A stretch of DNA of 10,593 bases from a virus (taxonomy: Duplodnaviria > Heunggongvirae > Uroviricota > Caudoviricetes): IMG/VR virus record IMGVR_UViG_2698536408_000006, one strand, 5' to 3'. The position numbers were made by a program. Of the stretch, positions 9,001 to 10,593 are shown piece by piece. The stretch's first letter is position 1. Each line of letters begins with the position of its first letter.

Positions 9001-10593
9001 GGGTAGGTAAATCATCTTCAGAAGGAAACCATACACACTCACTGTCCGGCACAGCAGCATCTGCGGGTGCACACGCGCATACTGTCGGTATTGGTGCTCA
9101 TACGCACTCTGTTGCGATTGGTTCACATGGACACACCATCACCGTTAACGCTGCTGGTAACGCGGAAAACACCGTCAAAAACATCGCATTTAACTATATT
9201 GTGAGGCTCGCATAATGGCATTCAGAATGAGTGAACAAGCACGGACCATAAAAATTTATAACCTGCTGGCCGGAACTAATGAATTTATTGGTGAAGGTGA
9301 CGCATATATTCCGCCTCATACAGGTCTGCCTGCAAACAGTACCGATATTGCACCGCCAGATATTCCGGCTGGTTTCGTGGCTGTTTTCAACAGTGATGAG
9401 TCATCGTGGCATCTCGTTGAAGATCATCGGGGTAAAACGGTTTATGACGTGGCTTCCGGCGACGCGTTATTTATTTCTGAACTCGGCTCATTACCGGAAA
9501 ATGTCACCTGGTTATCCCCGGAAGGGGAGTTTCAGAAGTGGAACGGCACAGCCTGGGTGAAGGATACGGAAGCAGAAAAACTGTTCCGGATCCGGGAGGC
9601 GGAAGAAACAAAAAACAGCCTGATGCAGGTAGCCAGTGAGCATATAGCGCCGCTTCAGGATGCTGTGGATCTGGAGATCGCAACGGAGAAAGAAACCTTG
9701 TTGCTGGAAGCTTGGAAAAAGTATCGGGTGTTGCTGAACCGTGTTGATACATCAACTGCACCGGATATTGAATGGCCAGTAGCACCTATAGGGTAAATTC
9801 GTAATGATTACCTAAATACGTTATTCTTTTGTTAAAAAAGTGATTTTGCTATAGGTAGGGAGTATGTTCTTGGATTAAGAATAAAAAATCGCCATGAAAG
9901 AGCTTCATGGCGAGTACATAAACGTACAAAATGTGATGAAAGTAGAGTGGCGTAAGCCACTATATTAAGATATGACAATAGCGAAGAAAAGTAAATAACA
10001 TTTTATGGACGTTTAATTGTTAATTATAAAAACTAGAGTGCCCGATATTGTTTATCTTGCTTTAAAATAATGTACTCAAACCAAATTTTTGAGCTAAAAG
10101 CTCAAATAATATAAATGCAATAATAATGTTTAATAAGACAATTAGCTTGCTTTGTATTTTCATTTCGGAATACTGTTAAGTAACTTTGATGACCCTAACA
10201 ATAGATCGGAATTTTCTTAGAGTCAATGGTCACTGTTTTTGCTTGCAAAGCAAATGTTTTGGTGGTTATAAGTCGTCTTAATATAGTCACGCATGCAACT
10301 TGTTCCATGCGGAGATTAAAGATTGGAATATAACGCGAAGATGGAATTAAATTACATTTGCAATAATTAATTTATTATTACTCAATAATTACCGATATTA
10401 TTATTGTAAATTAATCATTAGAATGCAAAAAGAAATGTAACGGCAAAATAAGAGGACGATAGCTGAGAAAAAAGCGTGCTTTCCCAATCTGGGGCAAATC
10501 ACGTCTGAATGACACCTGAAAACAGGTGGTAGCCTCAAGAAGGCTGGTGATGCTGCCAACTTACTGATTTAGTGTATGATGGTGTTTTTGAGG

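Follow-up and report, generated by a model that had tools for sequence, protein, structure and literature searches.

Lambdoid phages carry morons at the tail end of their genomes, among them lom and bor of lambda, gp15 of HK97 and cor of phi80 and HK022, and several lambdoid moron cargo genes encode small envelope proteins. The closest described relative of the gene considered here is the chromosomal yncL. YncL is a 31-residue inner-membrane protein that is induced in minimal medium, during heat shock and in stationary phase; its production results in sublethal membrane depolarization, nucleoid condensation and hypersensitivity to pore-forming peptides, and early production lowers viability (PMC12542507). 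In the same study, which compared the two proteins, the stress-induced 27-amino acid protein YohP belongs to the same functional class as YncL (PMC12542507). YncL is also a substrate of RseP that is cleaved in vivo (PMC10470546), and Salmonella YncL is encoded on a short sigma-S-dependent transcript that was first catalogued as the small RNA (sRNA) STnc1110 (PMC5437024). The DNA analyzed here, IMG/VR virus record IMGVR_UViG_2698536408_000006, is a stretch of 10,593 nucleotides from a virus of the Caudoviricetes (the window), and it represents the right arm of a lambdoid prophage, with tail-tip J domains, lom, stf and tfa. The segment under study extends from the tfa stop codon to the left end of an IS1 element (9797-10545), and within it lies, on the minus strand, the 33-codon open reading frame (ORF) that is the subject of this analysis, ORF33 (Table 1).

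It is probable that bases 9797-10374 of the window constitute a moron-like cassette, composed of a leftward gene for a YncL-family peptide and a terminator set within a conserved 3' structure, and equipped with a predicted promoter and a presumed expression and effect. An initial annotation of the window, made from the sequence by itself, had pointed to the 33-codon ORF as a possible gene for a small membrane protein, served by a leftward terminator of its own. The coding signal and the YncL homology described below bear out that suggestion.

ORF33 and its relation to YncL

Copies of the region were collected from RefSeq, IMG/VR and metagenomes and then aligned. Over the 578-bp module that contains ORF33, they form four lineages whose identity to the window is about 99%, 95%, 90% and 78%, the last being the divergent lineage of the following comparisons. 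ORF33 is intact and without indels in 114 of the 115 fetched copies, a set that spans the four lineages and includes some contigs fetched twice; its diversity amounts to four peptide variants and seven nucleotide haplotypes. The 78% lineage is separated from the window by 18 substitutions in ORF33, of which 11 are synonymous and 7 nonsynonymous, on 20 and 82 sites, respectively (dN/dS 0.09, binomial p = 1.5e-4), and relative to the 90% lineage there are five synonymous changes and one nonsynonymous change (dN/dS 0.04, p = 1.6e-3). When the six frames over the same bases are compared, that of ORF33 proves to be the only open one and shows the largest excess of synonymous changes. Indels flank ORF33 on both sides and none falls within it, and in the divergent lineage it is 82% identical to the window compared with 58-66% for its flanks. 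Judged by this pattern of substitution, ORF33 is a genuine gene. The initial annotation had rated it a weak candidate only, a verdict that is too cautious for a conservation pattern that is that of coding sequence. A dominance of synonymous changes, which had been proposed there as a check on the small ORFs, is found for ORF33 and not for the neighboring 37-codon ORF37, which is interrupted in relatives.

The similarity of ORF33 to YncL was detected in several ways. The sole NCBIfam match of the peptide is NF000537, "stress response membrane protein YncL" (E = 1.3e-5, 25 bits), and the match spans positions 1-28 of the 30-position model; two other ORF33 variants match the same model with E = 3.7e-5 and 7.5e-5, and YohP, used as a specificity control, matches only its own NCBIfam model. 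In the protein collection, the peptide has a precomputed Pfam match to PF28073:YncL that is marked weak; the local Pfam set was without a YncL model and therefore gave no Pfam match even for K-12 YncL. With BLASTP, ORF33 and K-12 YncL, the latter translated from the genome, align without gaps with 11 of 28 residues identical (39%, E = 2e-7). The score of this pair was reached by none of 20,000 whole-sequence shuffles and by at most one of 20,000 shuffles in which the N-terminal, helix and C-terminal segments were kept (p <= 1e-4). The alignment score of ORF33 is 60 with YncL, compared with 25 for YohP and 20-26 for LdrD, TisB, ShoB and IbsC. AlphaFold2 models the ORF33 peptide as a single helix encompassing residues 2-26, with a predicted local distance difference test score of 86, in agreement with the single transmembrane helix of the initial annotation. 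By sequence similarity, then, ORF33 is a YncL homolog.

In K-12 YncL (b4598, 31 amino acids; NCBIfam NF000537, Pfam PF28073) as in ORF33, the N-terminus is short and basic and leads into a single hydrophobic helix that carries a conserved Asn (position 12); further along, at positions 26-28, a basic residue precedes Phe-Gly. ORF33 is two residues longer at the C-terminus. The genomic settings differ. The K-12 yncL gene is located between patD and ortT (1517099-1517194), whereas ORF33 always adjoins a prophage tfa gene. The K-12 gene possesses a Shine-Dalgarno sequence, AAGGUGG, and none is recognizable in front of ORF33. A conserved 3' element of 80 nt, which includes a canonical terminator, follows ORF33, and the 3' flank of yncL looks different. 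Like the STnc1110/yncL transcript, ORF33 sits in DNA treated as noncoding; however, STnc1110 is chromosomal and sigma-S-dependent, and for ORF33 the C at position -13 of a putative -10 element is suggestive at most. YohP has no detectable sequence relationship to ORF33.

Several observations weigh against ORF33 being a gene of this family, or limit how far the conclusion extends. One metagenome contig has a defective allele in which the ATG has become ATA (L118, 262-264), and two frameshift-type variants of 43 amino acids, P0002 and P0004, diverge from ORF33 after residues 26-28; the three alleles could be sequencing errors or real loss. All four lineages come from E. coli-type prophages and their diversity is limited. 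Scans of one-genome-per-species contigs with an exact 27-mer of the 3' element and with peptide patterns gave nothing, and the metagenome and viral scans returned the same four lineages only; the selection test is therefore based on a small number of independent substitutions. No Shine-Dalgarno sequence is recognizable before the start codon (...ACAGUAUUCCGAAAUG), as the initial annotation had remarked; around the start, the RNA is rich in A and U and is predicted by the centroid fold to be unpaired. Finally, the ORF33 variants score 22.5-25 bits against a curated NF000537 cut-off of 35, a model with which K-12 YncL scores 68.6. Because the ORF33 score is below the equivalog cut-off, the protein is better described as a divergent, prophage-borne YncL paralog than as a YncL equivalog.

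The peptide is rare among predicted proteins. It has been called on about nine contigs in a collection of 15 billion proteins, and an exhaustive HMMER search of 1.84 billion representatives found only the ORF33 peptide itself and a frameshift allele. The 43-amino acid frameshift allele, used as a protein-search query, retrieved four near-identical entries. The ORF33 peptide string was not found in the literature.

The 3' element and the upstream signals

Conservation of the module is not uniform but is concentrated in islands, of which ORF33 is one and the 80-nt 3' element of the minus-strand RNA is another. In the divergent lineage, the 3' element is 94% identical to the window and its two flanks are 63-66% identical (5 differences in 80 positions versus 67 in 190; Fisher p = 1.6e-7). 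The ORF33 stop codon is 148 nt upstream of the terminator stem, in accord with the distance of about 150 nt given by the initial annotation, and the hairpin is, as claimed there, a terminator for the minus strand only: the stem is followed by a T6 tail on that strand, and on the plus strand no T-run follows it. The region contains two terminator-like sites compared with 0.5 +/- 0.7 in shuffled sequences, and the 98-nt RNA ending at the terminator folds with z = -7.1 relative to shuffles. The stems are kept among 11 variants, and the terminator is conserved in all lineages. One stem change converts a G-C pair to G-U on the minus-strand RNA and would be a mismatch on the plus strand; double compensatory changes were not found among the 11 variants. 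The 3' element and ORF33 occur together in what is essentially one set of genomes, 827 and 826 in number, with 933 and 932 places, respectively, and none of these is on a plasmid. No Rfam 15 family matches the 3' element at its gathering score, the best scores being 22.8 bits for MicC (gathering score 90) and 15.6 bits for Esr41 (gathering score 102). A second terminator-like hairpin (10106-10088) was rejected; it falls within ORF33, and in the divergent lineage its pairing on the mRNA strand is disrupted.

The terminator and the 3' element thus appear to be under constraint, with one reservation. Locus L036 is a left/right recombinant, in which a divergent left flank is joined to a body of the 90% type just to the left of the conserved block. 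Since recombination is active here, a recombination patch could inflate the apparent conservation of the 3' element. The block of the divergent lineage differs at 5 of 80 positions from both other types, which argues against a recent import. It is most likely that the 3' element stabilizes and terminates the mRNA; its release as a small RNA is a further possibility.

The last possibility can be taken further, with the 3' element as the main product of the locus, a small regulatory RNA formed by processing of the mRNA or from its own promoter, and ORF33 either secondary or part of a dual-function transcript. The layout would be of the Hfq type, beginning with a hairpin on the 5' side and continuing through C/U-rich single-stranded RNA to the terminator and its U-tail, and the fold is stable. 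Within the module, conservation peaks in the 3' element (94%, versus 82% for ORF33 and approximately 65% for the flanks) and breaks off sharply at the U-tail and just upstream of the first hairpin, SL1. The linker is invariant save for one C/U change, the stem substitution described above pairs only on the minus-strand RNA, and the weak, subthreshold Rfam similarities are to terminator-bearing sRNAs on the same strand. However, neither an Rfam family at threshold nor a compensatory double substitution lends support to an RNA function, the 3' element is never found without ORF33, and a short recombination patch is an alternative source of its conservation. Moreover, ORF33 is under an independent coding constraint, so an sRNA would be at most an additional function. 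We regard the sRNA as the main product as doubtful. A two-product module, which would combine a YncL-like peptide that tunes the membrane potential of the lysogen with an undescribed sRNA of approximately 80 nt derived from the 3' untranslated region (UTR), is also rather improbable. If it were true, the peptide might, for example, exclude superinfecting phages or push cells toward a tolerant state, the invariant C/U-rich linker would regulate host or phage mRNAs, and the exchange of tail-fiber cassettes would have spread the module as the mobile counterpart of a chromosomal stress-peptide gene.

Upstream of ORF33, the 66 nt preceding the ATG (10164-10229) are 80% identical in the divergent lineage compared with 58% for the next 41 nt. 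This stretch contains a candidate promoter with a C at -13 (Table 1), whose -35 hexamer and -12T, -11A and -7T are kept in the 78% lineage. It would produce a 5' UTR of approximately 27 nt without a Shine-Dalgarno sequence. Against the candidate, it is only a 9/12 consensus match in AT-rich DNA, and promoter-like sites are not enriched in the region (five, compared with 4.2 +/- 2.3 in shuffles).

We propose the following hypothetical model for the cassette, in which the preferred reading of ORF33 as a gene for a YncL-family peptide is placed in the context of the prophage. In the lysogen, leftward transcription would start at the cassette's own candidate promoter, approximately 35-65 bp upstream of the ATG, and would be convergent with the late tail genes. 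The short mRNA would be translated into a 33-residue, single-helix peptide that would be inserted into the inner membrane, and there, by analogy with YncL, the peptide might lower the membrane potential or alter envelope stress signaling. By the same analogy, the peptide could be of benefit to the lysogen or interfere with an incoming phage. At the terminator block, 87 bp short of the tfa stop codon, the transcript would end and would thereby be kept from extending antisense into the late operon. When the phage grows lytically, late transcription, being anti-terminated, would continue through tfa and traverse the opposite strand of the cassette, probably silencing it, as the convergent layout and the general biology of lambda suggest.

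A small hydrophobic, single-helix peptide with its own terminator could also be expected of a type I toxin-antitoxin locus, in which ORF33 would encode a membrane-damaging toxin controlled by a cis-encoded antisense sRNA, as in hok/sok, ldr/rdl and tisB/istR. We consider this unlikely. The homolog YncL does depolarize the membrane and lower viability when produced early (PMC12542507), and the ORF33 peptide, judged by YncL, may likewise be a depolarizing membrane peptide comparable to the Hok, Ldr, TisB, ShoB and Ibs toxins. A promoter-like site on the plus strand (9972-10001) could drive an antisense RNA over ORF33; however, this site is a 9/12 match within the poorly conserved spacer, and the divergent lineage has a changed -35 hexamer. 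No terminator turned up on the plus strand in the scan, the sequence revealed no antisense partner, and the divergent lineage does not preserve, on the mRNA strand, the hairpin within the ORF (10088-10106). In contrast to the Hok, Ldr, TisB, ShoB and Ibs toxins, ORF33 matches no known toxin family in NCBIfam or Pfam, its family similarity being to YncL only, and YncL is neither described as the toxin of a toxin-antitoxin pair nor provided with a described antitoxin.

Module A, its distribution and its neighbors

The composition of the DNA changes abruptly at the end of tfa, as the initial annotation had stated: the GC content is approximately 0.5 in stf and tfa, about 0.51 inside tfa, and 0.29-0.33 over 9750-10500. 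Also in agreement with that annotation, no ORF of at least 60 amino acids is present on either strand of 9797-10545. The segment contains 11 ORFs of at least 20 amino acids; ORFs of 20-52 codons are frequent in such AT-rich DNA, and length alone does not set these apart from chance.

Matches to the segment occur in 1,343 of 5,426 complete E. coli genomes and are of three classes: full-length matches (280 genomes), matches to bases 1-578 only, and matches to bases 665-749 only. The second class, found in many genomes and approximately 96% identical, corresponds to positions 9797-10374 of the window and defines a conserved, unannotated module, Module A; comparison across genomes had been put forward by the initial annotation as a check on conservation, and it is this 578-bp unit that is conserved. 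ORF33 is present in 826 of the 5,426 genomes (about 15%), with up to three copies per genome. The closest relatives of the window are prophages at the lambda attachment site (att-lambda), adjoining ybhB-bioA. At att-lambda loci, Module A is followed by a gene for a YdeO/GadX-like, AraC-family regulator; at the ydfJ site, what comes next is the 3' remnant, 100 bp long, of a different tfa allele; and at other loci the module adjoins sitABCD. The tfa remnant, about 100 bp long and in the same orientation as tfa, was seen after the module both at the ydfJ site (L004, approximately 4580-4700) and at a locus adjacent to a major facilitator superfamily gene and sitABCD (L005, 4546-4645), which places the module between two tfa 3' ends. 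This arrangement suggests that Module A was acquired or spread via recombination within tfa. The expectation of the initial annotation that horizontally mobile cargo would be found at the tail-fiber end is thus realized by a module that follows tfa with differing cargo and at differing sites. In one genome of the divergent lineage (L089), an IS3-family element (2174-3402) lies between tfa and ORF33; as the match there covers the ORF33 region only, ORF33 appears to be separated from its 3' side. The conservation of 10271-10374 in the divergent lineage was rejected as a sign of constraint: it reflects ancestry shared with the ydfJ-site type, and in both the module is then followed by the tfa 3' remnant.

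Three phage isolates, mEp332, PhiR70_1 and ev099, carry the module. Of 50,697 phage records only 4 contain it, other related phages being without it, and a more sensitive search added no further phage record. Where the phage records annotate an ORF, it is ORF37 (PhiR70_1) or a 55-codon ORF across the IS1 site (ev099), never ORF33, and among the matches listed no RefSeq annotation covers ORF33 or the 3' element. On the strength of its sequence features, Module A is best read as a moron-like cassette whose mobility is tied to the tfa end of lambdoid prophages. Like the lambdoid morons, it is cargo beside tail genes with its own terminator, a composition unlike that of its neighbors and a patchy occurrence among related phages. 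Unlike the products of lom, bor, gp15 and cor, the ORF33 peptide has no sequence relationship to any of this group. A PHROGs search with ORF33 gave nothing significant (best E = 0.59), PADLOC gave no match, and nothing relevant was found in the literature on prophage small membrane proteins and morons.

Most other ORFs of the segment were rejected as genes. ORF37 is present where the initial annotation had placed it, but its ATG is lost (ACG or AAG) in most lineages other than that of the window, and in-frame stops and 1-bp and 2-bp indels interrupt it. A 48-codon ORF on the minus strand (9832-9978) has stops and frameshifts in relatives, and plus-strand ORFs of 31 and 35 codons have frameshifts. 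A 24-codon plus-strand ORF (9894-9968) is never interrupted, yet every substitution in it is nonsynonymous, and its conservation is explained by the overlapping RNA element.

For ORF37 and the plus-strand ORFs, an account of the whole segment as nonfunctional, acquired AT-rich DNA with chance ORFs, probably a spacer bound by H-NS or the upstream region of the AraC-family gene, is correct. It also holds for the frames at the IS1 edge and suits 10375-10545, which looks like mosaic filler, and the frequency of short ORFs, the want of a Shine-Dalgarno sequence and the missing annotation of ORF33 in the RefSeq and phage records among the matches listed speak in its favor. As a reading of the whole segment it is very unlikely. 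ORF33 has a synonymous excess, is free of indels and is homologous to YncL; conservation occurs in islands; and the module is present without the AraC-family gene at the ydfJ site and beside sitABCD. For 9886-10229 this account is largely refuted.

To the right of Module A, the bases 10375-10545 are mosaic junction DNA that has been cut by IS1 and contain no gene. The first part is found only in those att-lambda loci compared that carry the AraC-family cargo. The remainder is the beginning of a 213-bp segment that is 93-100% identical to other prophage regions in many E. coli genomes and has no Rfam match. A copy in O157:H7 (L006, 3001-3215) is 96.7% identical over 215 bp and is located after three NleG-type (DUF1076) genes, adjoining uspF. 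The same IS1 junction is present in 79 complete genomes, together with a deletion of approximately 550 bp of the adjacent intergenic DNA. In an uninterrupted relative, the insertion site is in mosaic noncoding DNA 757 bp upstream of the rightward YdeO/GadX-like AraC-family gene, and in the IS1-bearing lineage the IS1 is 207 bp upstream of that gene. The insertion and deletion could change the expression of the regulator. The initial annotation had noticed two minus-strand frames that are open up to the IS1 boundary, which is correct, and had considered them compatible with a leftward gene disrupted by IS1; that the segment is the degraded remainder of such a larger gene is refuted by the IS1-free loci L001, L002 and L003, where the frames amount to no more than 45 and 55 codons and have no family match, and the 213-bp segment at the insertion site is shared with other prophages and in L001 runs into a tRNA-Ser 3' fragment.

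The cargo gene itself is beyond the right end of the window (L001, 6506-7249; L055, 7081-7824). It encodes a 247-amino acid AraC-family regulator that is closest to YdeO (E = 1.9e-43) and GadX and belongs to phrog_1450. Between the module and this gene, L001 contains a tRNA-Ser-like 3' fragment (5864-5925; GGTCTCGAAAACCGG...GGTTCAAATCCCCCTCTCTCCGCCA) that has been deleted in the lineage of the window; ARAGORN identified no whole tRNA there. The fragment is probably the attachment-site scar of an integrative element that brought in the regulator gene.

The left part of the window yielded three further observations. The tail-tip region (22-6033) is duplicated or mosaic, with repeated J parts, two versions of lom and an stf fragment ahead of the full stf gene, and has the look of a scar left by recombination between the tail modules of two prophages. 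The GC content dips to 0.41 around 1200-1650. The Rfam family IS009 (RF02111, catalogued as a gene/sRNA) matches 9600-9756 on the plus strand with 169 bits, above its gathering score of 117; the match falls in the 3' coding part of tfa, and the family appears to describe tfa coding sequence and not an independent RNA.

Table 1. Coordinates of features in the 10,593-nt window
Feature	Position	Strand	Basis or remark
J C-terminal domains	22-1461 and 1515-2621		
Full lom	2689-3288		
stf N-terminal fragment	3310-3678		
Second J C-terminal part	4356-5480		
Truncated lom, 160 aa	5551-6033		Precedes full stf at 6126
stf (side tail-fiber gene)	6126-9215		
tfa (tail-fiber assembly gene)	9215-9796		
Module A, conserved unannotated AT-rich module, 578 bp	9797-10374	.	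Directly after tfa; right-hand neighbor varies
U6 tail (TTTTTT)	9888-9883	-	Follows terminator stem
Terminator stem-loop	9913-9889	-	11 pairs, 5 G-C by scan; RNAfold 10-bp stem, 5-nt loop
Small hairpin SL2, 4 bp	9927-9914	-	Fold
C/U-rich single-stranded linker CUCUACUUUCAUCACAUUUU, 18-20 nt	9945-9928	-	Fold
Hairpin SL1, 6 bp	9961-9946	-	Fold
Conserved 3' element on minus-strand RNA, 80 nt	9886-9965	-	Fold, identity profile
Variable spacer, ORF33 stop to 3' element	9966-10061	-	96 nt; 63% identity and 10 gap columns in divergent lineage
ORF33, 33-codon gene, YncL-like single-helix membrane peptide MKIQSKLIVLLNIIIAFILFELLAQKFGLSTLF	10062-10163	-	ORF scan, conservation
Promoter-like site TTGACT-17 nt-TATTGT, C at -13	10226-10198	-	Scan; candidate
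ORF37, 37-codon ORF	10195-10308	-	ORF scan; rejected as gene
Filler, only in att-lambda (AraC-cargo) loci compared	10375-10460	.	No detected feature
First 85 bp of 213-bp shared segment	10461-10545	.	Cut by IS1
Minus-strand ORFs reaching or crossing IS1 boundary	10401-10559 and 10411-10515	-	ORF scan; 45- and 55-codon ORFs in IS1-free relatives, rejected as gene remnant
IS1 left end	10546-10593	+	Comparison with uninterrupted relative

Meaning for prophage and YncL biology

Small stress-type membrane proteins and phage morons are both known as classes; what is new is an unannotated, prophage-borne gene of the YncL family. The gene falls into an annotation gap, as its score is below the NCBI family cut-off and it is unannotated among the RefSeq matches listed. 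The conserved terminator region marks a boundary at which tail-fiber cassettes are joined to cargo, such as sitABCD and AraC-type regulators. Lysogens of mEp332 or PhiR70_1, compared with and without the gene, offer an experimental handle on the role of the 33-codon gene. The existence on lambdoid prophages of a divergent copy under purifying selection provides a clue to the natural role of YncL, suggesting that YncL-type activity is useful in a phage-host setting.

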